From assembly GCA_963835575.1 (NCBI GenBank), contig CAWIGG010000002.1, positions 768,001 to 832,000 of the forward strand: 64,000 nucleotides of DNA, in the 5' to 3' direction. Source of the DNA: an uncultured Spirochaetota bacterium. Its GTDB lineage: Bacteria; Spirochaetota; Brevinematia; Brevinematales; JAOACQ01. The position numbers and the translations under genes were made by a program. The notes under the pieces were generated by a model, which had not been told where the DNA came from, made no database searches, and saw only the letters and a program-made list of their open reading frames with translations. Below, piece after piece: positions 36,332 to 53,068 of the stretch (within the stretch, counting starts at the first letter, position 1; the number at the start of each line of letters is the position of its first letter).

Positions 36332-37851
36332 GTAACTATCCAGCCGCATATTTAATAGCGGAGCCGTTCAACGCGTCAATAAGGGCTTGATAAACACTGA
36401 CGCCCATCTTTTTTACTGTAGATATATAACCCCTGATTCTGCAAAAGGCAGCCGCTCCATTCCAGCTTCTGAATGTACCTGATATTTTCTGCTGGACTTT
36501 TATCATTCTGATATCCCGTTCCGCCAAATTGTTGCTGAATGGAACATCTTTTTCCCGCATAAATAAAAGGACAGATTCTTTATATTTTCTTAATCGGTCT
36601 AATAGGCATAAAACCTTGCCCCGCTTTTTTCTGCCGCGTTTAACAAGTCCTTCCGGCTTTTCAGGCGTTGGATTTACAGCAAATCCTTTCGCGATGATCC
36701 GGTCATATTCCGTATCATATTCTATAATCCTTTCCGCCGGTATTGGAAAACTTGCCTCTTTATCATTCTTAATCCTTATAAGAAGATTACCCATCTCCTT
36801 AGCCCATTCCTGACCCATTTCCTCATGTATCCAGATTAGCTCTCTCAAATGGTGTACATTACACAATCCATGACGGCATAAGAATTCCAGATAACTTTTC
36901 CATCCATCGTGGATAATAATACCGGTAAATCTTGTGAGAATGTCCATCGCACGCATCGCCTCTGTGCCGCGTTTGTCATGAGAAAAATAATAGGTAAAAC
37001 GTTCATTCGAGGCAACATGGAGCCATTTTAATAACCCTTTTATCCGAATACCGGTTTCATCACAGTGAAGAACCACTTCTTTTAGTATCAGTTCTATGAC
37101 TTTCTGTTCATACTCTTCTAATTTATTGTAGGTCTCCCGGATAAATCCTTCAATCGTTGCCTTGCTGAGCGGCACTCCCAATAAACATTCGGCGTATTCC
37201 GAAAGCCTTTCATAGGGTATCAACCCATATGTTTTCATATAGACCAGATGCGCTTTAATGTTTTTTCCATACTGTGCCTTATTGGTTATGCCTTCCGGAA
37301 ACTCCGCCGTTACTCTCGCACCGCAATGCGGACAATCTTTTACTTCCGAGCGATGTTCGGTAACTTCCACTTTTATCGGAGGTATATCGAACACCTGCCT
37401 TCTTTCCGTCCGCTTAACTGATTCGGAACTTAAATCAATTCCACAACAGGAACATTTTTCAACCTGATGTTCTATGATCTTATCAGGGCTTTCTACTTTC
37501 TTCAGAGTATTTCCCTTATGTCCAAACTGGCCGCCTTGTTTTTTACCGCTCTTTTTCCGTAAATTCTTTACTGTATTTTGGAATGGATTATCGGAAGACG
37601 GCGGTTTATTGCTGTTATGGCTGTCCTTATTAAGCTGTTCTTCCAATTTCTTAATCTTTTCCGCTTGTCTTTGAATGATTAAACCCTGCTCCTTTATCTG
37701 GTTTTGTAAATCAGCAATGATGCCTTCAAATCGTTTTAAGCAGGCCGCACAGTCTTTTTCTCTTCTATCTTCATTCATGCTATAGAATAGCATGGTTTCA
37801 TGCTCAATGCAAATATTTCATGTGACTATTTTTTAGTGGCTGGATAGTTAC
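36332..37851 (-). mobile_element. IS66-family insertion sequence, single-ORF type (ISBst12-like), 1520 bp
   Basis: 14-bp perfect terminal inverted repeats GTAACTATCCAGCC (36332-36345 / 37838-37851); 8-bp target duplication CATTATTC (36324-36331 / 37852-37859). Confidence 0.95.
36336..37793 (-). CDS. IS66 family DDE transposase
   Basis: Coiled coil, NS.KPPSSD, GGQ.GH.G, CxxC zinc ribbons, HCDETG, C..H..RE, NN.AER.IR..K...K.SG. Confidence 0.96.
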   Translation of the reverse strand: MLFYSMNEDRREKDCAACLKRFEGIIADLQNQIKEQGLIIQRQAEKIKKLEEQLNKDSHNSNKPPSSDNPFQNTVKNLRKKSGKKQGGQFGHKGNTLKKVESPDKIIEHQVEKCSCCGIDLSSESVKRTERRQVFDIPPIKVEVTEHRSEVKDCPHCGARVTAEFPEGITNKAQYGKNIKAHLVYMKTYGLIPYERLSEYAECLLGVPLSKATIEGFIRETYNKLEEYEQKVIELILKEVVLHCDETGIRIKGLLKWLHVASNERFTYYFSHDKRGTEAMRAMDILTRFTGIIIHDGWKSYLEFLCRHGLCNVHHLRELIWIHEEMGQEWAKEMGNLLIRIKNDKEASFPIPAERIIEYDTEYDRIIAKGFAVNPTPEKPEGLVKRGRKKRGKVLCLLDRLRKYKESVLLFMREKDVPFSNNLAERDIRMIKVQQKISGTFRSWNGAAAFCRIRGYISTVKKMGVSVYQALIDALNGSAIKYAAG

Positions 37852-37887
37852 CATTATTCTTTAAAATAAAAAGGAACAACGTAATGG

Positions 37888-38132
37888 AACCACAGATTTC
37901 ACAGATGACACAGATTATAATTTTGCAGGTATCAGTGAAATCATGTTATAATTCTCAATATGAAAAAGAAAAGAACGGTACGCGAACATATGGTTCGAAT
38001 GTGATCAGAGCAATTGGGATTATTGATGTGGCAAGACGTTCCTAAATAATATTTTAATAAAGGAATAGGAAATTTATATCATCTGTTATCATTCCTTTAG
38101 AAATATCAGTGAAATCAGTGTAATCTGTGGTT
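37888..38132. repeat. Inverted pair of 9-bp-period triplet motifs (CACAGAT x3 ... ATC(A/T)GTG x3)
   Basis: AACCACAGATTTCACAGATGACACAGATT (37888-37916) and ATCAGTGAAATCAGTGTAATCTGTGGTT (38105-38132). Confidence 0.7.
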
Positions 38133-38227
38133 TCAACTCGTAAGATTGAATTACTAAGATAGTTAAATAAAGTTTTTAGATGAGTCTGAGAGTACCCCTA
38201 ATATAAGCCTGGAAAAGGAGGTTTTGA

Positions 38228-39232: not shown

Positions 39233-40975
39233 ATGAATAAAAGAATACTGTTTACTATTCATTTATGTTTTATCATGAATATCTTTACCGCGTCTTTTTC
39301 ATTATTCAATTATAACGGCGAAGAAGCCATGATTTATTCCGATTCTGAAATGCGGCCTGTTGAACTGGAAGATGTCAACCGGCTGATTAAACGGCAAAAA
39401 GATCAATTAAACGATTTTTTCAATAAAAGGCTTTCACAAAAGCCGGCGGTCTATTTTTATTCGAGCGTCAATTCCTTTGAGAAAAATCATTCATTAGACC
39501 GGCATTTCGGCGGCCTGTATCAGAATGGAAAGATCACTCTCCAGCCTTTTACTGTATTAAAGAAGAATGGAGTTCTCTGGAGTATGCTCTCCCATGAATA
39601 CACGCACTTTTATGCGGACAGCTTTTATACCAATCTGCCTTTTTTTATCCGGGAGGGATTGGCCTCTTACCTGGCGGGGAATAAAGTACGGGAGGCTGAA
39701 CCTCTTCTGTACGAAAGCATACAAAATCCTTCGAATTTTACAAACGCTTTGGACTTCGAGTATTATTTATACTCATCCCGGAATTATATTCAGTATTTAC
39801 TGACGCAGATGAAGAAAAAGGAATTCCTGGGATTTCTAGAAAAGGCCTCTCCGGCGGACATTAAAAGCAGGTATCTTGATTACTACTACGCGGATTGCGA
39901 TACCGTCAGGGTATGGATCAATCCGAGGAGCGAAAAAAGGTTCGTTATAACATTTAACGGAAACTGCAGGGTCCTTGAAGATAACGGTCTTACGAATATT
40001 TATGATAACAGTATAGATATTGAACATATCAATAATAAGCTTTATCTGAACAATAACGAATCCGGTAATGTGTCGCTTTATTTTAAGGACGGCTTTTCTG
40101 TTGATAACGGAAGGGAGAAATCAAGGGATTACAGGGGGAATTTAAAGATCATTCTCAGTAATCAGAATATTTATTTAATCAACCTGGTCCCTGTCGAGGA
40201 GTATCTTTACAGCGTCGTGAAAAGCGAAATGCCTTCCGCCAGCCTGGAAGCTTTGAAAACGCAGGCGGTCCTTTCTAGGAGCCTTGTGAATTACAAAAAG
40301 AGGCTGAACAGGAATGAATTGTACGATGTCCTGACTTTGACCAGCGACCAGTCATACCAGGGCCGGGGATGGGAAACAGCCCTTTCCCGCAGGGCCGTCC
40401 GGGAAACGGATAAGGAAGCCCTTTTTTACCATAATAGCATGGTTTATCCCTACTACTCGTCAACCTGCGCCGGGCATACGGCGCTTTCCGCCGATGTCTG
40501 GAATAAAAGCCTGCCTTATATCAAAAGCGTCGAGTGCGGCCTGTCGAACAAAATCCTCTGCTCCCTGTCGCCGCATTTTAAGGATTGGGAAAGGGAGATC
40601 ACAAGGGATGAGCTTTCTGAAATAATGAATTTTACGGTTAATAAATTTGAAATTGAACAGGCTGATCCCTTCGGGAGGGTGAAATATATCAAGGTGAACG
40701 AACGTTCTTACCTTTTCGATAACCTGAAAAGCCTGACGGCCAGGAAAAAGGGCTGGGCTTTTTTAAAGAGCAATCTTTTTACCATACGGAGATCGAGCGA
40801 TGGGCTTGTCTATCATATCAGGGGCAAAGGCCTCGGCCATGGCGTGGGTCTCTGCCAGTATGGGGCCATCGAGCTGTCGAAGGTGAAGAACTATAAGGAG
40901 ATTTTGAAGTTTTACTTCAATGAAGTGGAAGTGAGAAGGGTCCATCCGGAGGATGATTTGTACTTCCAGTACTAA
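39233..40975 (+). CDS. SpoIID/LytB domain protein with N-terminal HEXXH metallopeptidase-like domain
   Basis: LSHEYTH...EGLA.YL at the N-terminus; EEYL.SVV..EMP...EALK.QAV..R, DQ.Y.G and G.GHGVGLCQ.GA SpoIID motifs. Confidence 0.88.
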   Translation: MNKRILFTIHLCFIMNIFTASFSLFNYNGEEAMIYSDSEMRPVELEDVNRLIKRQKDQLNDFFNKRLSQKPAVYFYSSVNSFEKNHSLDRHFGGLYQNGKITLQPFTVLKKNGVLWSMLSHEYTHFYADSFYTNLPFFIREGLASYLAGNKVREAEPLLYESIQNPSNFTNALDFEYYLYSSRNYIQYLLTQMKKKEFLGFLEKASPADIKSRYLDYYYADCDTVRVWINPRSEKRFVITFNGNCRVLEDNGLTNIYDNSIDIEHINNKLYLNNNESGNVSLYFKDGFSVDNGREKSRDYRGNLKIILSNQNIYLINLVPVEEYLYSVVKSEMPSASLEALKTQAVLSRSLVNYKKRLNRNELYDVLTLTSDQSYQGRGWETALSRRAVRETDKEALFYHNSMVYPYYSSTCAGHTALSADVWNKSLPYIKSVECGLSNKILCSLSPHFKDWEREITRDELSEIMNFTVNKFEIEQADPFGRVKYIKVNERSYLFDNLKSLTARKKGWAFLKSNLFTIRRSSDGLVYHIRGKGLGHGVGLCQYGAIELSKVKNYKEILKFYFNEVEVRRVHPEDDLYFQY

Positions 40976-41024: not shown

Positions 41025-41402
41025 GATTTTTGTTACGACTGGCAGTCGAGGGATTTGCGTACTTTTTTTCTTTTCGAAAAGAAAAAAAGTACGCGCGAAA
41101 AAAATAAAACAGGTCGAGGCCATTTTCATACGAAGCTGTCGGATTGGTTGGAGGTGTGTCATCCGGCTTTTAAAAAACGATTCCTTAATTTAATAGCCGC
41201 CTTATTACGCTGTCCTTGCCCAGCACCACTTTGAGGACGGGCAATCAAAGTGGTGCTGGGCGTGGCTTTATGCGGCGGTTTTGACATCCTTGTCAAAAAC
41301 ATGTACTTCTCTTCTATTATTATATTAGCGAATGACACGACTATATATCGAGATATTTTGTGTGCTGATTATGGTTTGGAGGAAAATGGCCTCGGGAACG
41401 GA
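41025..41402 (+). repeat. Left copy of a ~380-bp structured non-coding element
   Basis: Reverse-complement match to 51620-51996; 99 bp identical (41191-41289 vs 51732-51830); nested stems. Outer boundary approximate. Confidence 0.85.
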
Positions 41403-41629
41403 CTATTTTTTTAAAATCTTTTTGATTTTTATTCGTTTCATTGAGGATTAAATATACTTTTTAAAACATAGTATAACAGGCATTCTGTTGCCATATAAAG
41501 TTGTACAGAACGGTAGCGTCCATTCCGTAAATTGAGAGGTTAATGTAATAAGCGACTTTTTTCTTATTACAACCATATTATAAAACATTGCGAGGGACAC
41601 AGAATGTCCCGGTGTGAAAAATTTAATTT

Positions 41630-42450
41630 TTGTAAATCCCCACAAATGTGGGTAATACGATGACGGGCTTCGAACATCGGCAATTCCTCCGGTTCATCCC
41701 CATGCGTATGGGGAATACGAAAGTCCGGTGCTGCAATCGTAGGTAATTTCCGGTTCATCCCCATGCGTATGGGGAATACGAGCTTGTTGCCTTCAGCATA
41801 GAGTTTGCTGCCGGTTCATCCCCATGCGTATGGGGAATACTAACATAAACATCAATATGATTTGTCGTCGAACGGTTCATCCCCATGCGTATGGGGAATA
41901 CCACCGGACTTTCTTATGTTTTCGGGATTTTAGCGGTTCATCCCCATGCGTATGGGGAATACCACCGGACTTTCTTATGTTTTCGGGATTTTAGCGGTTC
42001 ATCCCCATGCGTATGGGGAATACTTGTTGCTTTCCGCCAGAACGAGTTCCATCGCCGGTTCATCCCCATGCGTATGGGGAATACTATTCCAACTATGGTG
42101 TCGAATGCATACGCTGCGGTTCATCCCCATGCGTATGGGGAATACAACCGGGCAGCATAAATTTGTTTGGAGAAATTCGGTTCATCCCCATGCGTATGGG
42201 GAATACTCCAGGAACCCCGGGAACTCTTTTCCATCTAACGGTTCATCCCCATGCGTATGGGGAATACGGTTGACGGAAGGGCTTTCAATGCTTTGCTTGC
42301 GGTTCATCCCCATGCGTATGGGGAATACAGCTGGTGCAAGTTCTTCCAATAGAATGATTACGGTTCATCCCCATGCGTATGGGGAATACAAATATTGCGA
42401 GATATAAATTGAAGCATATTACGGTTCATCCCCATGCGTATGGGGAATAC
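41630..42450 (-). CRISPR. Type I-E CRISPR array: 13 identical 29-bp repeats plus 1 degenerate terminal repeat, 13 spacers
   Basis: Repeat GTATTCCCCATACGCATGGGGATGAACCG (minus strand) every 61 bp from 41690 to 42422; 32-bp spacers (the distal one 31 bp); degenerate copy at 41630-41658 marks the trailer end. Confidence 0.99.
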
Positions 42451-42478
42451 TGTATAGTTTGCTTTATTTAACAAAAAA

Positions 42479-42757
42479 CTATTTATCTACAGGTTTACTC
42501 AACAATGTAATGCCGTCAAAATCAACCGCCGTTCTTGAAGGATCGCCATTCACCAAAATCTTGAAAGACTGCTCGGCATTTGTGGAATACAGCATAATCG
42601 CGTTCAACTTCCAATCCTCCACGATTTTTCTCCAGAGCTTTTCCCTGATCCTCGCTCCGATATCAGCCACAAACACACCTGATTTAAGCTCCAATGCTAA
42701 GCGCGACATCTCGCCTTTCTGAGACGGCTTCGAATTCTCCATCATAATCACGACCAT
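42479..42757 (-). CDS. cas2: Type I-E Cas2
   Basis: MVVI.ME.....KGE.SR..LE..SGVFV......RE.LW...EQ.F...DFDG..L. Confidence 0.95.
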   Translation of the reverse strand: MVVIMMENSKPSQKGEMSRLALELKSGVFVADIGARIREKLWRKIVEDWKLNAIMLYSTNAEQSFKILVNGDPSRTAVDFDGITLLSKPVDK

Positions 42758-43577
42758 ATATCAATTCCTTCAGGTCGGGAATAATTCGCTGCATGATCCT
42801 GTTTTTCCTGAACGCGTCCCGGCACCGATACCGGACTTCCCTTTCCAGATGCTCAGGGTTATCCTTGACTGTCTGAAAAGCTATAGGAACAGTGACATCC
42901 GTCTTATAAAGATCGGCAATGTCATAAACAAAAGATAACTGCTTGCCGGTATGAACAAAACCGATGGCAGGGGACATGCCGCACGCCAGAACCGCCGCAT
43001 GAGTTATCCCGTAAAGACAGGAATTCGCTGAAGATAGGGCCCTGTTCAACGGGTCGCCGTAATCCCAGTGCTCCTGATTGTAATTCCTGCCTTTCCATTC
43101 AATTCCGTATTCCTCAGACAGCAAGTTGTAGCTTTTACGCACGCGGGCGCCTTCCATTCCCCTGAGCTGTTCGATGCTTTCGCTTCCTGTCAATTCATTC
43201 CCTCCGAAGCGTTTCCTGTACATTTCACGTACTATTTTCTCACGCGCCGCTTTGTCCGCCCATAGTTCCGCTTGCTTAAGCAGATTTCTTGAAGAATAAG
43301 TTCCCGGGCATCCGTATGAATAAAGCCTGACCCCCATCTCGCCTGTCCAGGCCACCAGGCATCGGCTTTCCGACAGGCATTTTACGGCCTCGTGAGTTAT
43401 GGAAGTCCCCGGCCCGAGCATCAAAACGCAGAGGGTTTCGACCGGAATAGGTATCACCTTGTCAAGATAATGAAACCCTATGGATTTTTGATATTGGTCG
43501 ATCAAGCCCTTTTCAAAATACAGATAACTCCATTCGTCCTCAAACTTCGGCAATTCCTGCAAATCCCGATTTTTCAT
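42684..43577 (-). CDS. cas1: Type I-E Cas1
   Basis: LMLGPGTSITHEA, LRGMEGARVR, N.ALS.AN.CLYG, GFVHTG..LSFVYDIADLYK; ATG at 43577 after AGGAGG. Confidence 0.97.
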   Translation of the reverse strand: MKNRDLQELPKFEDEWSYLYFEKGLIDQYQKSIGFHYLDKVIPIPVETLCVLMLGPGTSITHEAVKCLSESRCLVAWTGEMGVRLYSYGCPGTYSSRNLLKQAELWADKAAREKIVREMYRKRFGGNELTGSESIEQLRGMEGARVRKSYNLLSEEYGIEWKGRNYNQEHWDYGDPLNRALSSANSCLYGITHAAVLACGMSPAIGFVHTGKQLSFVYDIADLYKTDVTVPIAFQTVKDNPEHLEREVRYRCRDAFRKNRIMQRIIPDLKELIYGRDYDGEFEAVSERRDVALSIGA

Positions 43578-43709
43578 AAACTGCCTCCTTCCTTGGGAAA
43601 TTTCCCCCTCCCAATAAAGAAAGCTGACTATATGATTATCGGTTTGCGCCACTACAGAATATTCGCCTAATAGTAAAGAAAATATTCTGATAAAACAATT
43701 TATCTATCT

Positions 43710-44435
43710 TTATATTTTACGAACCATCAACATTCCAGAGCCGAAAGAACGCGAGTGGCCGATACCTTCAAACAAAACCTGCTTAAATCTTTCAGGGTCT
43801 TTAACAATTAGAATACCAGAGAGTTCAACACTATTAAACCGGATTTCATTTCCTCCTTTTTTACGCAATAAGTTTTGCCGATGTGCGGAAACTTCAATCT
43901 TTCTGTTTTCGCCTTCATTAACCGCAATCTGAAACCCTGATGCTTCTCCCTTTTTGACCATCCATTCTATTACCGCTTCTTCCATCCTTCGTTTGATTTC
44001 TTTGCGGTCAGTAATACCTTCTTTCTGAGCCCTAAATTTTGCATCCATTTGCACATCATGCTTAGAGGAATTCTCTTTTCCCTCAATTTTACGCGCAACT
44101 ATGGGATTTACTCTTATATTAAAAACCAACTTCATTCCTGATTTAAGTTTTGGATTATACTCCTTGGTTTCAACCCTCAAAAGACCGTTAACCGGAACCG
44201 GTTTTTTCTTCGATAAGACATAAAAAATAGGCATACCGCGTCTCGAATCGACAAATGGCATTTGCTCTTTTTCGAATTCCTGCCGGTAAAGAAATTCACG
44301 TCCGGAGTCGGGTTGATCGGGGAAAAGTTTCCAGATCAATTGATGTATGGCATAAATATCATTATTAAGCACTTTTATCAGATTCATATTAGCCTGAACC
44401 CCGCTCTCAATTCTAACCCTTGAGAAATACATCAT
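43710..44435 (-). CDS. cas6e: Type I-E Cas6e (CasE)
   Basis: Y..HQ.IW.LF, NP motif and C-terminal G-loop GIGHSRSFGSGML. Confidence 0.95.
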   Translation of the reverse strand: MMYFSRVRIESGVQANMNLIKVLNNDIYAIHQLIWKLFPDQPDSGREFLYRQEFEKEQMPFVDSRRGMPIFYVLSKKKPVPVNGLLRVETKEYNPKLKSGMKLVFNIRVNPIVARKIEGKENSSKHDVQMDAKFRAQKEGITDRKEIKRRMEEAVIEWMVKKGEASGFQIAVNEGENRKIEVSAHRQNLLRKKGGNEIRFNSVELSGILIVKDPERFKQVLFEGIGHSRSFGSGMLMVRKI

Positions 44436-45175
44436 GATTCACCTCCCGCCGTCATAGAGTGTTCTTTTCGGGGAGAAAACTGCCAGCGTCTGCGGTTTAG
44501 TGGTTCGTCAAAACGTTCGGTAGTCATTTGAGGCTGCATATCACCGGCTTCACCTTCCCATAAATAACGCGGATTTACAAATTCTATGTATCTTCCGGTA
44601 ATATCTTCATCTGAGTAATTTGTAACAAGCGGAGGAAATGACGCACCGTCCAGAGCGCCGCGAAATCCTGCGGATTCAATAATCTGCGGTTTGAGCGGTA
44701 CCGCCGGAGGACAGGATTTTCTCCCCAGATATATTACAAATTCCGGATAATTTAACTTTTGTTGCAGTTTTTCCAGGGAATAAGGTGCAACTTTTCTTGA
44801 ACGTAACGCAACTATGGACAGAGCGTCACAACGGTATTCCCGGCTGGTTAAAATAGTCCCTAATCGGTCTTTGCCAACCACTATTTCATCACGACGAGTC
44901 ATATAATGATATTTCCCGGTGCTATCCGGGACCTGTACCGTATGATAATCTTTAAGTAGTGTGCCGGGACTAAATACCTTTACCGAGACATCATAACCGA
45001 GAAACAGTGCTGTCAGTTTATCTGTTTCATCCCTTCTGATTCCCAGGGCTGCAGAAACCAATCCAAGAATTGCAGAACGGCTCGGATAAGATGAGCTTCT
45101 CCTGACCTCTCCGACAGCGATTTCACCCCAGGCGGCCAGAGGCCCGTAAAGTCTGAAAACAAGGAATTTCTCCAT
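44432..45175 (-). CDS. cas5: Type I-E Cas5 (CasD)
   Basis: L.GPLA.WG, PSRSA.LGL..AALGI.R, DYHTVQ, YLGRKSC.P. Confidence 0.96.
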   Translation of the reverse strand: MEKFLVFRLYGPLAAWGEIAVGEVRRSSSYPSRSAILGLVSAALGIRRDETDKLTALFLGYDVSVKVFSPGTLLKDYHTVQVPDSTGKYHYMTRRDEIVVGKDRLGTILTSREYRCDALSIVALRSRKVAPYSLEKLQQKLNYPEFVIYLGRKSCPPAVPLKPQIIESAGFRGALDGASFPPLVTNYSDEDITGRYIEFVNPRYLWEGEAGDMQPQMTTERFDEPLNRRRWQFSPRKEHSMTAGGES

Positions 45176-45178
45176 AAG

Positions 45179-46240
45179 TTACTCCTGAATAAATTTAATC
45201 AAATCAGCCGCGGAGCCTTTACCTTCAAAAGCGTTTAAAGTCTTTCTTTCTACTCCTTTAATATCATAAACTTTATCCATTTTTGCATATGTTGTTTCAA
45301 GCGCACTTACAGCATCTTCTCCAATATTATCCCCCTTAATCGGCTTGAGAAACGCGACAGAAAGTGAACGTGGCTGTTCATCACCTTTTTCCAAGAGTAC
45401 ATAAGATGCCCAAGCGCGGCTGGCATAGCTGTTCTGTTTGCCCTCGGGAGCAATCTTCACGGCTGATTCCAGTAAAGCGGCAAGTGTTTTATTAGCCAGA
45501 GTTTTATCATCCCCGAGATTTTGTATCAAAAGTTCCCGGTCAATACAGATATAGCTGTAGAAAAGGGCAGATGCGAAACCGCTTTCACCGATATGCGCCG
45601 CACCCATATCGTCTTTACCATTGTTAAGATCATCCACAGCGGTAAAATAATCATCTTCAATGACAACCGGATGAACGCTTATGGGGTGTGATACCTGGCA
45701 GGCGGCTTCCACATTATAGGCCGGACTGGAAGCCAGCATACGACCAAAAAGAGCGATATCGACAGCCGTTTCAGGATGGCGTAATAGTTGCAGTTCCGTC
45801 TCATTTGGCACCCGGTTTTCTTTAATCAGTCTGTCTGCCAATTTATAAACAGCTTCTATTTCTTCCGGTGAAATGTGCGCCAATTGCTCAATTTCAAGTT
45901 CTTCGTGTTTTTCAGGCTGTTTCTTGTTCTCACCTTTGAGTTTGCCAAATACACCTGCTATCGATTGCGCCCATTCTTTCGCGCTTTTTTCTTTAATTTC
46001 CCCTTTTATCAACCTTTCATATATTTTATGCCCAAGCTCTTTGGTTCTAGTTCCAATATGTCCGCTCATAGCCGATTTAAACAAATCAGAGGTTCTCCAG
46101 GCTCTTTTGATGCTCTGAGAAGAAATCCGAAGTCGATCAACTCCGCCCATTTTCGCTGTCTTCGGCCGGCCCATGTCGTCTCGGTTCAAATTTGCTGGTG
46201 GATATGATGTCAGGGTATGAATCTGAATAAACTTACTCAT
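45179..46240 (-). CDS. cas7: Type I-E Cas7 (CasC)
   Basis: NLNRDD.G.PK, R.RISSQS.KRA.R, DIALFGRMLA, DYFTAVDD. Confidence 0.97.
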   Translation of the reverse strand: MSKFIQIHTLTSYPPANLNRDDMGRPKTAKMGGVDRLRISSQSIKRAWRTSDLFKSAMSGHIGTRTKELGHKIYERLIKGEIKEKSAKEWAQSIAGVFGKLKGENKKQPEKHEELEIEQLAHISPEEIEAVYKLADRLIKENRVPNETELQLLRHPETAVDIALFGRMLASSPAYNVEAACQVSHPISVHPVVIEDDYFTAVDDLNNGKDDMGAAHIGESGFASALFYSYICIDRELLIQNLGDDKTLANKTLAALLESAVKIAPEGKQNSYASRAWASYVLLEKGDEQPRSLSVAFLKPIKGDNIGEDAVSALETTYAKMDKVYDIKGVERKTLNAFEGKGSAADLIKFIQE

Positions 46241-46270
46241 AAAAAATTCTCCTTTTAATTTTATTTTTCG

Positions 46271-46807
46271 TTATCTCGGAAGGTGTTGAAAATAATCCAG
46301 TCCCCATCGTATTAAAATCCTGTTACGCGGATTATTTTCCTCTTCACCATTTTCCCTTTCTTTGTACCAGTGAAGAATGCTGTCAGCGACAGAAACAGGG
46401 TCTGCTTTCTCACGCAAAAGGTGTATTGCCCTAATCATACGGATATATAGTTCATCCAATGTATGGCTTTTCTGGAGCTGAGCGAAACGAAGTTCACTCA
46501 ATGCCGGTTTATCTTTACCTTCTGGCGATGCTGCGCAGGATGCCGTAAAAGACTTTTCATCGATATACTTAATATGCGACACAATACCGGCCGCCGCCGC
46601 AAGTCCGAGTAAATTCCGTTCCTGAGTCCAGTATCCAGCTAGTTCATAATAGAGATAGCGGAAACCATGGCATAACAGAACATCTGCCGGGTTTTCCGAG
46701 CGTCGAAGTTCCGCCCTCCAGCCGGAATTTTCCTGAAGCTTCCCCCACCATGACTTCATTTTTTCCGGGTCTTCTTTGTTTCTGAACCCGTAATAATATT
46801 GGCTCAT
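46271..46807 (-). CDS. cse2: Type I-E Cas11 (Cse2/CasB)
   Basis: RAELRR, SELRF..L, W..DYF; position between cas8e and cas7. Confidence 0.93.
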   Translation of the reverse strand: MSQYYYGFRNKEDPEKMKSWWGKLQENSGWRAELRRSENPADVLLCHGFRYLYYELAGYWTQERNLLGLAAAAGIVSHIKYIDEKSFTASCAASPEGKDKPALSELRFAQLQKSHTLDELYIRMIRAIHLLREKADPVSVADSILHWYKERENGEEENNPRNRILIRWGLDYFQHLPR

Positions 46808-48375
46808 ACACCCTCCTGATTTAAGATTTGTAATGATTTCGTTTTAGGACTATTTAAAATACTGGTCAACGTTTTTGCGGCTTCGGCAACCCGCTTCATA
46901 TTCCTGGGTTCATCAGTTTCCTGCAAAGCAAACCGGTCGAAAATTCTTTCTACAGCTTTGATGATGATAGAACGCCATTCTTTTAAGATTGTAAAAGTAG
47001 GTTGGTTTCCTTCTATGCTTTTGCTTAGCTCATCGGTTATGGCATAAAAATCGGATTCTGTTTCTTCCCAGAAAGCGGAACGGATAAAAGATATATCGCC
47101 CTTTTTGTCACCGGGCCTATCAAACAAGGCTGATTTAACTTGATCTTGGAGTAATTTTGACATTTCATCGGCGGCGGTGATTATTTTTTGAACCTCTTCG
47201 ACAAATCGCTCTTTTTTATCTTCACTGATATTCAACAAGGGCATAGTCTGGTCGTACCAGCAACGGGCTTTCATATTATCCATATCATAACCAAAGCACC
47301 ATATTCTATTTTGCCCAGAATTACTTATTTTATATACCTTATGCGTAATAAAAGATTTTACAATTGCGGCTGCCTTCTCATTTTCCGATCCACCTAAAGT
47401 CAAAGAAAGCCAATCAGGATAAGAAAATCCTCCTTGTTTACCTTTGATTGCAATAAGGCTTGTACTTCCATCTTTTTCTTTCTGTTGTCTATAGGGGCTA
47501 AGAGTATGCTGCCAAATTGAAGAATAGCTTATACCATAGTTAATAGCTTTGAATTCTACCCAAACAGAACCAGTGCTTCCACAAATGCTACATGTTTTAG
47601 ATTCTATTTTTTTCAATAATCGAATACGGCGAGGCATGCCCCAATACATTTGTAATTCATTGACATCTGAAGGATTAGTTTGTATATCATTTTTACTTTC
47701 GCGAGTCAAAGCCATCCATGGAAAAATATTAAAAGGTGCGTTTTGGACTGGTTCTCCGAATTTTTCTTCTTTAGTCAAAATATTCAACCAAACCATTTTC
47801 CACAAAGAATCTTCTGAAGCCTCATTAATTATCAGTGTAGTTAAAGGACCACCACCCCTCATACCCGTTCTATGACCCTGACCACCTGATGGTGCATTAA
47901 TCTGTAAGGTGCTTAATGCCGTAGTCACACACCTATCACAAAGACATTCAACGACATCCCTTTTTACAAAATGATCTAAATTATTTTTTACAGTATTTGC
48001 CCCCGGTGAATCAATAAGAAGAGATCGTATATTTGAAACTTCTGCTTTTTCAGGAAGATTAAAATCCTGCATAAACGCCGGGCCATGCTCATTCACCAGT
48101 TCAAAAGCTTCTACGAATTTACTAAAAACCCCTCTCAATTCTTCACATGAAGGTGTTTTATCCCACCTATCTTTCCATTCCTTGTCATCTTCGGGAGCGT
48201 AAGCGGTTTGAACAAGTCCAATCATAAACTGGTAAAGCGCCCCTCGGAAATCCGGACGCGGCGCGGTAATTTCAGTAACAGGATTATCCGAAAGCCCAAT
48301 TTCCCAGGGAGCAATAACACATTCTGTTCCATCCGCACGTTTTACCGGAATCCACCGGTCTTTAATTAAATTCAT
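46804..48375 (-). CDS. cse1: Type I-E Cas8e (Cse1/CasA)
   Basis: MNLI.D.WIPV, PRPDF, APSGG.GHR...RGGGPLTT, YW.MPRR.RL. Confidence 0.95.
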   Translation of the reverse strand: MNLIKDRWIPVKRADGTECVIAPWEIGLSDNPVTEITAPRPDFRGALYQFMIGLVQTAYAPEDDKEWKDRWDKTPSCEELRGVFSKFVEAFELVNEHGPAFMQDFNLPEKAEVSNIRSLLIDSPGANTVKNNLDHFVKRDVVECLCDRCVTTALSTLQINAPSGGQGHRTGMRGGGPLTTLIINEASEDSLWKMVWLNILTKEEKFGEPVQNAPFNIFPWMALTRESKNDIQTNPSDVNELQMYWGMPRRIRLLKKIESKTCSICGSTGSVWVEFKAINYGISYSSIWQHTLSPYRQQKEKDGSTSLIAIKGKQGGFSYPDWLSLTLGGSENEKAAAIVKSFITHKVYKISNSGQNRIWCFGYDMDNMKARCWYDQTMPLLNISEDKKERFVEEVQKIITAADEMSKLLQDQVKSALFDRPGDKKGDISFIRSAFWEETESDFYAITDELSKSIEGNQPTFTILKEWRSIIIKAVERIFDRFALQETDEPRNMKRVAEAAKTLTSILNSPKTKSLQILNQEGV

Positions 48376-51117
48376 TCAAGCCTCCTCATTTAACTCCGCA
48401 CCCCACCCAAGTCGCGGATCATAATATTCCGATATCGGTTTATTACCAGAAAGTGCTTCGCTTGACCTGCAATTAACCAAAACGATTTCACTATATTTCA
48501 GTCTCGAAATTTCAGATTTTAATTTCTTTTCTAATTTTAAATAATCCGCAGACAGTTCATAATTAATTTTCTTCCAATTACACAAAGAAACAGAAAGAGT
48601 ACTCCAGTCCCAAGCATTATTTTCGACTTCCGCATAAGGAATCAGCTTGCCATTCTGGATAACAGCCAGGGCTATTTCCTGATTTTCTTCCATTAAACGG
48701 GTGCTTTTTTCTTCCTCTTCGCCCCAATCACTCAGTTTATCCGCATCCCAGCAATAACCCTTTTCAAGAATAATAGCACTCAAATCTCCCTGGGCCTCTT
48801 TTTTCCTGTCTGCACCCTCCGCCCTTGACACTTTTTCTTTCAGACCCTCCGGCAATTCCTGAGAATTATTCTCATCATAAACATTTTCAATTAAATCCCT
48901 TGCTTCCTCCGGCATCTTCCAACCCTTTTTCCCTTCCAATAATCTCTGCGTTCTCCAGAGAATCCCAACATTTTGATAAACAGATGATGTGCCTTTAAAA
49001 TCACCCGACAGCCAATTTTTATCAGCGTTATCGTTAAATACAGGACAGAACAAATAAATAACGGGAACCCCTCTTTCATCAACTGCATTGTCTTCAAGTC
49101 TGTTACCCTCTTTATCCCTGACATGCCGGCGAAGGCGCCCGGCTCTTTGAATCAATAAATCAATAGGGGCAAGGTCGGAAAACATAGCATCAAAGTCAAG
49201 ATCTAAAGACTGTTCCACAACCTGAGTTGCAATCAATATTCGGCCTTTTCGTTTATCTTTGCCGCTCATTATTCCAAAATTGTCAATAGTCGCCTTTTCA
49301 ATTCTTGCCCGATCGATCATAGCAAACCGGCTATGGAAAAGATCAATATTTTCACACTCAATACCAGACATGTTTCTTAAATCAAAATAGGCTTTTCTGG
49401 CATCCTTGACGGTATTGCGCACCCAGCAGACACATTCTTCCTTCTCGGCTTTCTTAATGATTTCAGCCAACACATCGGAATAATTGTAAGTAAATTTCAC
49501 ATCAACTTCCCTTTTCAACTTTTTACTGGTTTGGACAATATCAATCTTTAAAACATCTTTAGCTACTTGAGTTATTGAAGGAAAAGCTTTTTCACCGGAG
49601 TATTCTGTCACATCATCCTGATTCCCCAAACCTCTTCGGAACGCCTTTAAAATATCCCTTTTTTTCTTCAGTGGAATCGTCGCGGAAAGTAGTATTGCCG
49701 TACCTCCACTCCGTGCATGCGCTTCTAATAAAGTTTCTAATAAATGACCCATATAAGGGTCATACGCATGAACCTCATCTACAACAAGTACTTTTCTTTG
49801 CATTCCCAATAACCGAAGGGATTGATGTCTCACCGGTAAAATACCAATCAGAGCCTGATCGATAGTGCCTACCCCCACATCCGCCAGCAGGGCTTTTTTC
49901 CGATTGTCCGTAAACCATTCATTACAATAAGCACTTGCTGTTTCCTCAACATTTCCATAAGATTGATCCTCTTTTTGCAACAGCTTTATGAACACATCAT
50001 ATAAATGGCTTGATCCATGAGATAATATAATCGAAGGTTTTGAATTATCTGTATAAAGTTTGTAATAAGCTTGTTTCATTCTATTAAACATAGCGTTTGC
50101 CGTCGCCATTGTGGGCAACCCGATATAAAGCCCGTCCGCTTCCCCGGCAGCCATAATACGGGCGGCCAGTACCATAGCGGCTTCTGTTTTCCCCGCCCCG
50201 GTAACATCTTCTATTATGAATAACTTAGGTCCCGTACTTAAAGGTGTGATTTCAGCCAAAGACTGAAGAGGTGTCGGACGATGAATAAAAGGGAACATAG
50301 ATGAAATATCGCTGTATTTACTTGCTTTCCCCACGTTCCACCGGATTTTATCTAAAGCTATGCTCGCCTGTGATAAAGCCCTATTATTCCAATAATCTTT
50401 TAACTCTACTATATCAGATAGGTAAGGAAAATATTCTTGATTAGAACCAACCCAGTCCGCCAGAATACCAAGCCCGGCTATCTGCCAAGATAGTTCTTTT
50501 AATATTTTTTTAGGAATAATGTAATTTTCAGGAAACTCAGGAATTATACCCAAAAGATCAAAACAGGAATTTATAAAACTTTGGGCAGCTTTAACATCAT
50601 TATCATCAAAAAAAGAAGATACATATAATGGTGTATTTCCTCCTCTGCTAGACTCAAGCGGCGGAATTCCATGGTGACCAAATGCCGCTTTAATAATATA
50701 GTCAGCAATCTGCATCAAGATATTGTTTTTTGAATCGAATAAATATTTTATAGAATTTTCATTTCTATTCGGATCACCGCGCCAAAGAAGAAAACCAAGA
50801 GTATCATGCCTCTCTTCATAAATTTTAATTTTATGTAAAGGAAACAGAATACAATATAAACCAGGCACTAAGGATTGAAAGGTTTTTGAAAATTTTCCAA
50901 GGTCGTGAATGATCATAATCAATGTAATAACATAACGAACCGTTTTTCCAGGAAAGGATAGTTTTTGAGCTATATCCTTGCATCTCCGGGATTCCGGATC
51001 AAGCAACAGCCAAGTTACAGCGGCTACATCTAAGCAGTGGTATGGCAAAAGATGGTAAGAAAACTCTTTATCTCCTTTTTTGGTTGATTTTCCCCAGTAG
51101 AAATAATAATCTTTCAT
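48376..51117 (-). CDS. cas3: Cas3 HD nuclease-helicase
   Basis: YHCLDVA, HDLGK, GHHG, LADW; TG.GKTEA, DEVHAY, HSRF, ATQVVEQSLD.DFD, QRAGRL.RH. Confidence 0.98.
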   Translation of the reverse strand: MKDYYFYWGKSTKKGDKEFSYHLLPYHCLDVAAVTWLLLDPESRRCKDIAQKLSFPGKTVRYVITLIMIIHDLGKFSKTFQSLVPGLYCILFPLHKIKIYEERHDTLGFLLWRGDPNRNENSIKYLFDSKNNILMQIADYIIKAAFGHHGIPPLESSRGGNTPLYVSSFFDDNDVKAAQSFINSCFDLLGIIPEFPENYIIPKKILKELSWQIAGLGILADWVGSNQEYFPYLSDIVELKDYWNNRALSQASIALDKIRWNVGKASKYSDISSMFPFIHRPTPLQSLAEITPLSTGPKLFIIEDVTGAGKTEAAMVLAARIMAAGEADGLYIGLPTMATANAMFNRMKQAYYKLYTDNSKPSIILSHGSSHLYDVFIKLLQKEDQSYGNVEETASAYCNEWFTDNRKKALLADVGVGTIDQALIGILPVRHQSLRLLGMQRKVLVVDEVHAYDPYMGHLLETLLEAHARSGGTAILLSATIPLKKKRDILKAFRRGLGNQDDVTEYSGEKAFPSITQVAKDVLKIDIVQTSKKLKREVDVKFTYNYSDVLAEIIKKAEKEECVCWVRNTVKDARKAYFDLRNMSGIECENIDLFHSRFAMIDRARIEKATIDNFGIMSGKDKRKGRILIATQVVEQSLDLDFDAMFSDLAPIDLLIQRAGRLRRHVRDKEGNRLEDNAVDERGVPVIYLFCPVFNDNADKNWLSGDFKGTSSVYQNVGILWRTQRLLEGKKGWKMPEEARDLIENVYDENNSQELPEGLKEKVSRAEGADRKKEAQGDLSAIILEKGYCWDADKLSDWGEEEEKSTRLMEENQEIALAVIQNGKLIPYAEVENNAWDWSTLSVSLCNWKKINYELSADYLKLEKKLKSEISRLKYSEIVLVNCRSSEALSGNKPISEYYDPRLGWGAELNEEA

Positions 51118-51161
51118 TTTCTTACATCCAATGACAATTTACTAAAACCCATAAAACTTAC

Positions 51162-51452
51162 TTATGCCCACTTAATCCTTCCTATCACCCTTCCATTATA
51201 CCACATCCCCCGCGACACAGGACGTCCCTGTACAAGATAAATAAAAACCGCGCAAATCCGCCTCATCCGTGCTGATCCGTGTGAAAAATCGGATTTTATA
51301 ATAAAGATTCTTTTATTGTCGAGCATATATTCGATATCCTGCTTGACAGTGCTCTTGTTCACCTCGAATTTTTTGCTGATTTTTGAAACAGTAATTTTTC
51401 CTGAGTCTTTGATGTGCCGATTTATGTAGGCAATGCGCTCTGAAAGGCTCAT
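51162..51452 (-). pseudogene. Truncated winged-HTH regulator (N-terminus of a WYL/DeoR-type repressor)
   Basis: MSLSERIAYINRHIK...TVSKISKKFEV.KSTVKQDIEYM resembles the HTH of WYL proteins. After ~45 aa the frame runs into a short periodic repeat, and no WYL domain follows. Confidence 0.55.
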
Positions 51453-51619
51453 ATCCACCCCCTTGTCATCAGTGAGCCGTCAAACCCCCGCTATTGCACA
51501 AAAAGATAACCAATTATACACCCGTCTTCATTTTAAAACCATATTTATTTGATTCTCTATATCAATAAGGCTAATTTTAATTTTTTCATTATGTTTCCCC
51601 CGTGGTTGCTTCCCGTTCC

Positions 51620-51996
51620 TCCGTTCCCGAGGCCATTTTCCATTAGCCATAATCTGCGCATTAAATATCTCAATATCAAGTCGTGCTATCCGCTTTAATA
51701 ATAGAAGAGATGAAGCACATTCTTTTGACACGGATGTCAAAACCGCCGCATAAAGCCACGCCCAGCACCACTTTGATTGCCCGTCCTCAAAGTGGTGCTG
51801 GGCAAGGACAGCGTAATAAGGCGGCTATTATAAACGGGAATCATAAATTCAATAGACGGATAGCACACATCCATATCATCAGACTTCTTAGTATGAAAAT
51901 GGCCTCGACCTGTTTTCTTTCTTTTTTGCTCCTTTTCTTTCTTTTCGAAAAGAAAGAAAAGGAGCTTCCCCCAACAGCCTGTCGGAATAAAAAATC
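51620..51996 (-). repeat. Right (inverted) copy of the ~380-bp structured non-coding element
   Basis: Reverse-complement match to 41025-41402. Confidence 0.85.
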
Positions 51997-52129: not shown

Positions 52130-53068
52130 TTATTCCAAGATTTCCTTTACATCGATGGTACCGCTCCATTGGGAATCCTTGATGATGTCTCCCCTTGCCC
52201 TGATCATCCTTCCGTTTTGTCTGAACAGGCTTTTCTTATAATCACCGATGACTTTGAGAGATATTCTGGACCGGGATTCGGGCTTGATGACCAGATAGAC
52301 TTCATTATCGCCCGTGCTGACTTCAACTTTTACATTAATAAAACCTTCATCGTCTTCGCCCTGTGTTTTGATTTCAATATCATGCGGACGGGACTTAACG
52401 TAATTTGTTATTGTAATGTAATTGGTTATGGTCAAATAAACATAATTTGTTATAGTTGCGATGTTGACCGTTGCCGGATTTCCGGCATTAATAACGCCCA
52501 GAATGGTTTTTATCTCGATTGTCCCGAACCTGCCGGTTTGCTTGTCTATTTCGCCTTTAACATCAATGATTTTTCCGTCATATTTAAAAAGCTCATTTCT
52601 CAATTTCCCGGTAACTTTCAGGTAAAGCTTTGATTCGGAATCCCAATTCTGGATGAAAAACACTTCATTACGTTTCAAAGTTGCTTCTATTTTACCCCTG
52701 TAGACTTCTCTGTTATCAATAATCACAGGTGCAGAAGAATACTGACCTGCCGCTGTGCTGATTATTTCATAGATATCAATAGTGCCCAGACTGGCGGTCT
52801 GTTTTTGAATGATGCCTTTAACTGTAATTATCTGGCCGTCATATTTGAAAAGCTCATTTCTGTATCTTCCAGTGATTTTCAATAATGCTTTTGCGGAAGA
52901 ATCCCAGTTTAATATAAAGAATACTTCATCACGCTTCAGCGTGACCTGGATTTTGCCCTTGCATACATCTTTGAGATTGGGGCTAATCATGTTCCCATTA
53001 TCGGGTTCGCCGGCAAAACCGCCTCTGAAGAAAGCTAATAAACATAAACTTAAAATAATAGTTTTCAT
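52130..53068 (-). CDS. Secreted hypothetical protein with three ~67-aa internal repeats
   Basis: Signal peptide; repeat consensus G.I..TL...EV.F...W.S.....LK.TG..R..LF..DG..I.V.G.I.K.....GTI.I..I. Confidence 0.75.
   Translation of the reverse strand: MKTIILSLCLLAFFRGGFAGEPDNGNMISPNLKDVCKGKIQVTLKRDEVFFILNWDSSAKALLKITGRYRNELFKYDGQIITVKGIIQKQTASLGTIDIYEIISTAAGQYSSAPVIIDNREVYRGKIEATLKRNEVFFIQNWDSESKLYLKVTGKLRNELFKYDGKIIDVKGEIDKQTGRFGTIEIKTILGVINAGNPATVNIATITNYVYLTITNYITITNYVKSRPHDIEIKTQGEDDEGFINVKVEVSTGDNEVYLVIKPESRSRISLKVIGDYKKSLFRQNGRMIRARGDIIKDSQWSGTIDVKEILE

Follow-up and report, generated by a model that had tools for sequence, protein, structure and literature searches.

The window analysed here is a stretch of 64,000 nucleotides from the genome of an uncultured Spirochaetota bacterium (G000, 4.39 Mb); G004 is a congener of this source genome, and G006 and G009 belong to one other genus. 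The window contains a CRISPR-Cas locus (Table 1) that belongs to type I-E, as it combines cas3, cse1, cse2, cas7, cas5, cas6e, cas1 and cas2 with 29-nt repeats at a period of 61 nt, the spacers being 32 nt long. None of the spacers is self-targeting when checked against the genome, and the repeat sequence of the array is found in no other array of G000. Spacers 4 and 5 (41873-41994) are identical and correspond to a duplicated repeat-spacer unit. The GC content of the cas block, 41.5%, is the same as that of the genome. Next to the operon lies a 98-aa HTH fragment that aligns with the N-terminus of a 319-aa WYL regulator of G004. Regarding the genes at either side, no orthologue of the SpoIID-domain gene was found among four congeners, and a search of these congeners with the sequence of the 312-aa right flank gene found nothing. 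An IS66 element at 36336-37793, which has many near-identical copies in the genome and matches a contig of run X1 at 100% identity, splits a ppx-gfo region that is contiguous in the congeners. Short-word palindromes of another repeat family, which we take to be the GxxExxY-associated one, are present at 37885-38135 and at 51262-51290, the latter within the margin of the cassette.

Table 1. Features of the CRISPR-Cas locus, its two bracketing elements and its flanks (window coordinates).
Feature	Position	Strand	Remarks
Left flank gene, 580-aa SpoIID-domain	39233..40975	+	best match in four congeners 29-35%
Left element, outer head hairpin 1 (small GC hairpin, then G run)	41036..41052	+	stems compensatory among copies
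Left element, head hairpin 2 (T-rich/A-rich perfect palindrome), A-rich linker after	41057..41094	+	
Left element core, TwoAYGGAY-like fold	41115..41402	-	13-14-bp closing stem; tail at 41402
99-bp tract identical between brackets	41191..41289	+	= reverse complement of 51732-51830
46-bp palindromic insert, loop of first core hairpin	41216..41261	.	both window copies and a minority of others
Second core hairpin, loop AAGGAT, CsrA-site-like	41279..41298	-	
Type I-E CRISPR array	41690..42450	-	13 repeats of 29 nt, 12 spacers
Operon cas3-cse1-cse2-cas7-cas5-cas6e-cas1-cas2	42479..51117	-	orthologous locus in congener G004, 55-85% aa
Truncated HTH-WYL regulator, 98 aa	51162..51458	-	full form 319 aa in G004
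Right element core, TwoAYGGAY-like fold	51620..51907	+	tail at 51620 faces cargo
Right element head (hairpins 2 and 1)	51928..51984	-	
Right flank gene, 312 aa, in no Pfam family	52130..53068	-	no match with this query in four congeners

A preliminary description of this DNA had reported that the locus is enclosed by two inverted non-coding stretches of about 380 bp, with no transposase or integrase between them. This account was confirmed: 41025-41402 and the reverse complement of 51620-51996 are 81% identical over an alignment of 403 bp, the 99 identical bp were found again, the inner ends of both brackets are identical over 22 nt, and nothing lies between the brackets except the 13-repeat array, the eight cas genes and the HTH fragment. 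The nearest gene for a transposase is that of the IS66 element, which sits outside, 3.2 kb beyond the left bracket. Each bracket is composed of an outer head (a small GC hairpin, a T-rich/A-rich hairpin and an A-rich linker), a core of about 240 bp that in each copy is closed by a stem of 13-14 bp, and a short tail. Compared with shuffled sequences, the left copy folds much better (z = -7.3). Among 22 copies, 96.8% of the cells pair and six of the 40 pairs vary on both sides; the structure was built from these same 22 sequences, and the controls are therefore flattering. At the position of the 46-bp insert a contig of run X1 carries a shorter allele. The 99-bp tract shared by the two brackets likely results from gene conversion or from common descent of the insert allele.

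The brackets are not peculiar to the CRISPR locus, which the preliminary description had taken for a possible carrier of its own kind. The count of copies that it had called for showed that they are two of 34 dispersed copies of a structured repeat, that is, one copy per about 125 kb. These copies, which were counted by anchoring on the conserved ends (29 of the 34 have both ends, and 22 of these 29 are uninterrupted), are mutually 70-85% alike, and three further, diverged copies exist in G000 beyond the anchored ones. A second, more diverged repeat subfamily with a different closing stem occurs in the same genome (G000:C2:711949, C5:133648 and C5:235850). Identical tracts of 99-192 bp connect distant copies, the 192-bp one including 91 bp of an intron; the tract shared by the brackets ranks 7 of 561 copy pairs by length, the median being 27 bp. 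The presence of still longer tracts between other distant copies points to recombination or conversion among copies. An IS1182, a group II intron or an IS1380 is inserted in the cores of seven copies, at fixed loops, and four heads carry another IS1182 element, of which there are 24 copies in total. Three of the four copies of the group II intron lie in the identical hairpin arm of the repeat, and five of the six copies of one IS1182 element are located in a core loop (L017:10300-12400, L037 and L045). G000 also contains orphan palindromic units that consist of a head only, and four small cargo blocks end in such an orphan head 0.8-1.1 kb past the tail.

Based on their sequence and predicted fold, we classify the brackets as TwoAYGGAY-like structured repeats, that is, as resembling this family and not as members of it. 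The TwoAYGGAY motif was listed, without a function, by Weinberg et al. (2010, PMC2864571), and binding of CsrA to it has been proposed (PMC4333381). Li et al. (bioRxiv 10.64898/2026.09.22.753630) describe an extended form, largely confined to Pseudomonadota and present in up to 202 copies per genome, that is characterised by an elongated basal stem, additional 3' hairpins, a 3' pseudoknot, short 5' repeats of 5-6 nt and divergent doublets; they call its spread mobile-element-like and leave that link open. In Pseudomonas, 68% of the doublets are divergent, with their 5' ends facing each other, at a median spacing of 249 bp. In these terms, our tail is the 5' end of Li et al. and our inward pair is their divergent doublet; the left tail, at 41402, is thus the 5' end in TwoAYGGAY orientation and points at the cargo. 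The likeness to TwoAYGGAY (RF01731; PMC2864571; 10.64898/2026.09.22.753630) consists of two sequential hairpins with GGA loops on a common, long basal stem, additional 3' hairpins, tens of intergenic copies, a patchy distribution, and pairs with their 5' ends facing. The relaxed loop motif A(N0-2)GGAY is present in both core loops of 11 of 24 G000 copies and 10 of 19 G006/G009 copies, and in one loop only of 9/24 and 7/19, respectively. It is restricted to the strand read from tail to head, where 35 or more of the 43 copies have at least one such loop, and the other strand has none (0/43). Each copy in the window has one A(N)GGAY loop, the other being broken by the insert, and many loops read AGGAT or AGGGAT rather than AYGGAY. 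Whereas the RF01731 model finds nothing in G000, it aligns from end to end with three homologous copies in G006 and G009; the scores, 30.7, 35.3 and 37.2 bits, are all under the 43-bit Rfam cut-off, and the matches lie on the strand opposite to that of our core model. These three are the sole matches among the 12 genomes of the family, and across the phylum the model matches 5/151 genomes. Inspection of five loci of Pseudomonas type, out of 80 viral-contig loci, showed the linker, the T/A-rich hairpin and the small GC hairpin in the same order, and in some copies the word GGAAC comes up two or three times beyond the tail (without a null). The element differs from TwoAYGGAY in scoring under the Rfam cut-off, and from the extended form (10.64898/2026.09.22.753630) in its host, a family of Spirochaetota whereas the known form is mostly from Pseudomonadota, and in its facing pairs, which are 1.4-10.6 kb apart with genes between them. 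At the gathering threshold, Rfam yields one tRNA and nothing else for 36000-58000 of the window; at E<=10 the left copy gives unrelated weak matches only, and the insert may break its fold. Two other identities were considered and rejected: a coding remnant, on inspection of the alignment, without codon periodicity, and IS1111-like sub-terminal repeats for the closing stem, the sequence of which differs between genera yet still pairs.

Covariance models of the core, scoring 150 candidates per genome, gave 29 matches in G000, 18 in G006 and 28 in G009, and none in the other nine of the 12 family genomes, including the four congeners (94-96% complete). The repeat is therefore patchy, being present in 3/12 family genomes and 0/4 congeners. 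A first DNA search of 30 relatives had missed the homologues, which were recovered with a shorter copy and the covariance models; the closing stems differ in sequence between the two genera and pairing is kept. Two weak matches in congeners were dismissed as chance. A DNA and pattern search of 401 genomes of the phylum revealed no further genomes, exact-pattern scans gave no match in genome contigs (one of these scans covering the long size class only) or in viral contigs, and BLAST of the element against plasmids and phages returned nothing. Five pattern matches in metagenomes turned out to be an unrelated palindromic element, and four matches of viral contigs to the head pattern are not the element. 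One Pseudomonas plasmid match is located inside a type III secretion cluster, a setting that is uninformative on polarity. In another family of the phylum (L296, L298, L299 and L300; G149, G123, G155 and G161), an RF01731-type element is found behind a tRNA-Pro/Arg/His cluster; the genes beyond it differ per genome, one having an integrase, and in G123 the element is present as two tandem copies, with a duplicated 3' end of tRNA-His ahead of the second.

The placement of defence genes beside the element is far from chance, and it is polar. Of the 18 DNA methyltransferase loci in G000, among them three identical copies of a single gene, eight lie no more than 3.5 kb from an element on its tail side and none on its head side; random placement gave a mean of 0.47 tail-side loci and a maximum of six in 20,000 trials. 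Similarly, four of the eight small nucleotidyltransferases of G000 are at a tail and one at a head (P=0.00025). Within 3.7 kb, the second genus shows tail-side methyltransferase loci in 4/7 cases in G009 and 2/6 in G006, and none at a head. It should be noted that G006 and G009, being of the same genus, are not independent, and that the two methyltransferase-side copies in G006 came from a targeted search and one of those in G009 from a DNA search. The base composition is also asymmetric: the 2-kb flanks in G000 have a GC content of 39.1% at the tail versus 44.4% at the head, the tail being lower for 21 of 29 copies (p=0.0009), and for G006/G009 the contrast is weak in a first set (13/20, p=0.16) and clearer in a second (15/20, p=0.024). 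Other tail neighbours include HicAB, RelE/HigA, MNT-HEPN, MazF, Fic, HNH, GmrSD, DRT, Dsr1 and RloC-like genes, and several uncharacterised tail-side genes match Dsr1, DRT or other PADLOC models. The PADLOC counts, 9/27 tail-side versus 1/32 head-side proteins, come from hand-picked sets that were chosen differently and hence do not constitute a test. Heads mostly adjoin housekeeping genes or IS1182. The separation is not perfect: three heads in G000 have a toxin-antitoxin (TA) gene on the head side, one of which is cargo of the next tandem copy, and several tails adjoin housekeeping genes (GAPDH, aminotransferases, EamA and a PTS permease). In genome G132, the 11 RF01731 copies, 10 of which score above the RF01731 cut-off, are head-less and show no polarity; GC is lower at the tail in 5/10 (p=0.77), and housekeeping genes are found on both sides where annotated. 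Thus, the polarity belongs at most to the extended form.

Several individual neighbourhoods deserve mention. Tails in G006 (L281:3253-6347, L276:1418-4712 and L278:5808-8375) adjoin a two-ORF UG5 RT-nitrilase system of DRT type and two Dsr1-like genes. At L035:4561-6453 a kinase gene is located at the tail of an element, and neither a second copy nor a head of the element was found on the far side. [quoted passage not shown] Finally, L013:4850-8473 encodes a 1207-aa type IIG-like restriction-modification (RM) protein with an internal Y1 transposase-like domain, and this gene is 70% similar in DNA to a gene of the cassette array of G000.

The arrangement of neighbouring copies is biased as well. 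Among the 83 copies of the three genomes, the pairs within 12 kb comprise seven inward, seven tandem and no outward ones; 1.98 inward pairs were expected (P=0.004), and the ratio of 7:0 between inward and outward pairs has a P of 0.016. Besides the pair around the CRISPR-Cas locus, G000 has a second inward pair, which encloses a 10-kb type I RM locus; those of G009 surround, respectively, another type I RM locus, MazF, HNH and a block that has decayed, and the pair in G006 encloses three genes of no assigned function. Five of the seven thus carry CRISPR-Cas, RM (in two cases), MazF or HNH genes. For G000 taken alone, the two inward pairs within 11 kb are compatible with chance, since 14% of random placements yield as many or more (P=0.14). 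No cargo block was found at two element sites, except for IS elements and the intron.

Did the CRISPR unit itself move as one? The preliminary description offered, among other readings, a non-autonomous mobile cassette, and the evidence obtained does not show this: neither a target duplication nor an empty site nor an enzyme was found, and the partner copies are unlike. Outside the shared tract, they rank 16-29 of 33 with respect to each other and are not close kin. The outer flanks share no 8-mer, showing scattered 6-7-mers only, and the outer ends are not sharply defined; a terminator duplication at insertion was not seen either. A search for the empty site found none, the flanks coinciding with a synteny break in the four congeners, where the flank blocks are far apart or on different contigs, and the reads of three metagenome runs gave no contig that spans the site. 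Nor does any enzyme family recur beside the copies with annotated neighbours, except for the IS1182 members inserted into copies, and no relative of cas7 was found in viral contigs. One of the four congeners, G004, has an orthologous CRISPR module at another site, without the element or any inverted repeat; homology with it spans 41636-51374, so that each bracket is within about 250 bp of the module border. The CRISPR module thus does not need the repeats. The preliminary description had held that its cassette would fall if the element were a high-copy dispersed repeat flanking the locus at chance frequency and relatives carried the cas locus at this site without it. Part of this came true, as the repeat is high-copy and dispersed and a congener has the cas locus without the element; however, that locus lies at another site, and the adjacency to defence genes is beyond chance.

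Taking these data together, we tentatively lean, at a little short of an even chance, towards the view that copies of the element act as portable recombination arms, or cassette ends, for the swapping-in of foreign gene blocks. This view builds on the repeat family, its covarying fold, the defence-side polarity in three genomes, the bias towards inward pairs and the long identical tracts. The repeats would spread through an enzyme acting in trans. DNA at the inner end of a copy, once closed by a second copy or an orphan head module, would then become a cassette, and cassettes might enter or replace one another via recombination between incoming and resident copies. Such recombination would explain why unlike brackets share a converted tract.

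Other explanations have to be considered. One is that the repeats entered, in a preferred orientation, intergenic gaps at the borders of pre-existing islands, in which case the bracket would be a by-product and nothing would move as a unit. That G004 has the same CRISPR module without repeats agrees with this, as do the kinship of partner copies, which are not mutual nearest relatives (rank 6-29 of 33), and the fact that the repeats are hotspots for other mobile DNA (IS1182, the group II intron and IS1380). However, secondary insertion would require a rule that points one end of the element at foreign DNA, given that there are no outward pairs and no head-side methyltransferases in three genomes, and we consider it rather unlikely.

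A true non-autonomous composite transposon, in which head-to-head units and their cargo are moved by a trans-acting enzyme that recognises the folded outer heads, is likewise an unlikely explanation. The heads are outermost and inverted in the inward pairs, orphan head-only units exist, the copy number and patchy distribution look mobile, and the outer hairpin has 9 nt in common with the terminal repeat of the 24-copy IS1182-family element. On the other hand, this 9-nt match is the sole trace of a cognate transposase, and the outer hairpin drifts from the IS1182 end by compensatory changes; no enzyme family recurs beside annotated copies, bar the inserted IS1182 members; the outer flanks of the CRISPR unit have no direct repeat of 8 bp or more; and its brackets, at 81% identity, are not the near-identical flanks of a composite MITE. 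Of the earlier reading as a composite of MITE-like or structured-RNA elements, what stands is that the ends are structured repeats and that bracketing recurs, around the type I RM locus of G000 and in five inward pairs of two other genomes; what is not borne out is a composite transposon.

Chance flanking at a density of one copy per about 125 kb could account for the inward pairs of G000 if taken alone, as mentioned above, but the defence polarity and the 7:0 orientation bias in three genomes, together with the tight fit to the module borders, have already largely refuted it, and we deem it very improbable. Even less can be said for a purely regulatory role, in which the repeats would be CsrA-binding RNAs that are transcribed outward from the cargo and kept by selection: A(N)GGAY loops on one strand only, the presence of csrA in G000 and the proposed binding of CsrA to TwoAYGGAY (PMC4333381) are in line with it, but csrA occurs as well in genomes of the family that lack the repeat, promoter-like matches are about as frequent as expected by chance, one loop is broken by the insert in both window copies, and G-U pairs are at least as common on the opposite strand. 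Finally, the segment is most improbably an invertible one flipped through recombination of its inverted copies, as the preliminary description had also envisaged, since despite the inverted orientation and the 99-bp identical tract, the covarying inner stem of each bracket matches its own other half across that tract (GTCATCC/GAATGAC at the left, GCTATCC/GGATAGC at the right), which a single crossover would scramble, there is no recombinase inside, and no promoter-gene join would change.

We return to portable recombination arms, and to how these would relate to known systems. Composite cassettes of MITEs and REPIN/RAYT doublets have non-coding inverted ends that are mobilised in trans, and they are targets for IS elements. 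The element described here has such non-coding inverted ends, would be mobilised in trans and is an IS insertion target; its ends lack near-identity, unlike in those systems, and it has neither a cognate transposase nor a RAYT linked to it, the palindromes that flank the RAYT-like gene of G000 being different from the element. Like the attC sites of integrons, it is a folded non-coding site beside TA, RM and uncharacterised genes that can form tandem arrays, whereas its cargo occurs in both orientations, in blocks of up to 10 kb, and an attC site is much shorter than the repeat. Matches to the cassette array of G000 were found in 5/34 tail flanks, 0/34 head flanks and 18/300 random windows. 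Furuta et al. (2010, PMC2853133) reported RM genes between imperfect inverted repeats without a transposase, including two empty-site cases in which the repeats measure 26 bp and 65 bp and the unit has a target duplication of 8 bp; their analysis excluded high-copy repeats. These RM units (PMC2853133) resemble the loci described here in having defence genes between inverted repeats and no transposase, and differ in that the ends are here high-copy structured repeats of about 380 bp, with no duplication found.

It is also possible, if doubtful, that extended TwoAYGGAY doublets terminate cargo elements of a class not yet described, which lack an enzyme of their own. The short doublet of Pseudomonas would then be the empty form, and in their loaded form the elements would transfer complete CRISPR-Cas, restriction, DRT or toxin-antitoxin systems from one genome to another, mobilised by an enzyme that acts in trans and recognises the folded ends. 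A search of the literature on repeats with defence cargo brought up no paper in which TwoAYGGAY elements bracket or face defence genes; the words "cargo", "restriction" and "genomic island" are absent from the main text of Li et al. (10.64898/2026.09.22.753630), whose supplement on doublets may bear on the point. The new part is the polarity and the cargo of a known but unexplained repeat family, and not a unique CRISPR carrier.

TwoAYGGAY has been an orphan motif since 2010. Its strict defence polarity, and doublets enclosing CRISPR-Cas or restriction genes over as much as 10 kb, give it a testable role in the arrival of anti-phage systems, and the element would provide a simple non-coding marker for new defence genes.
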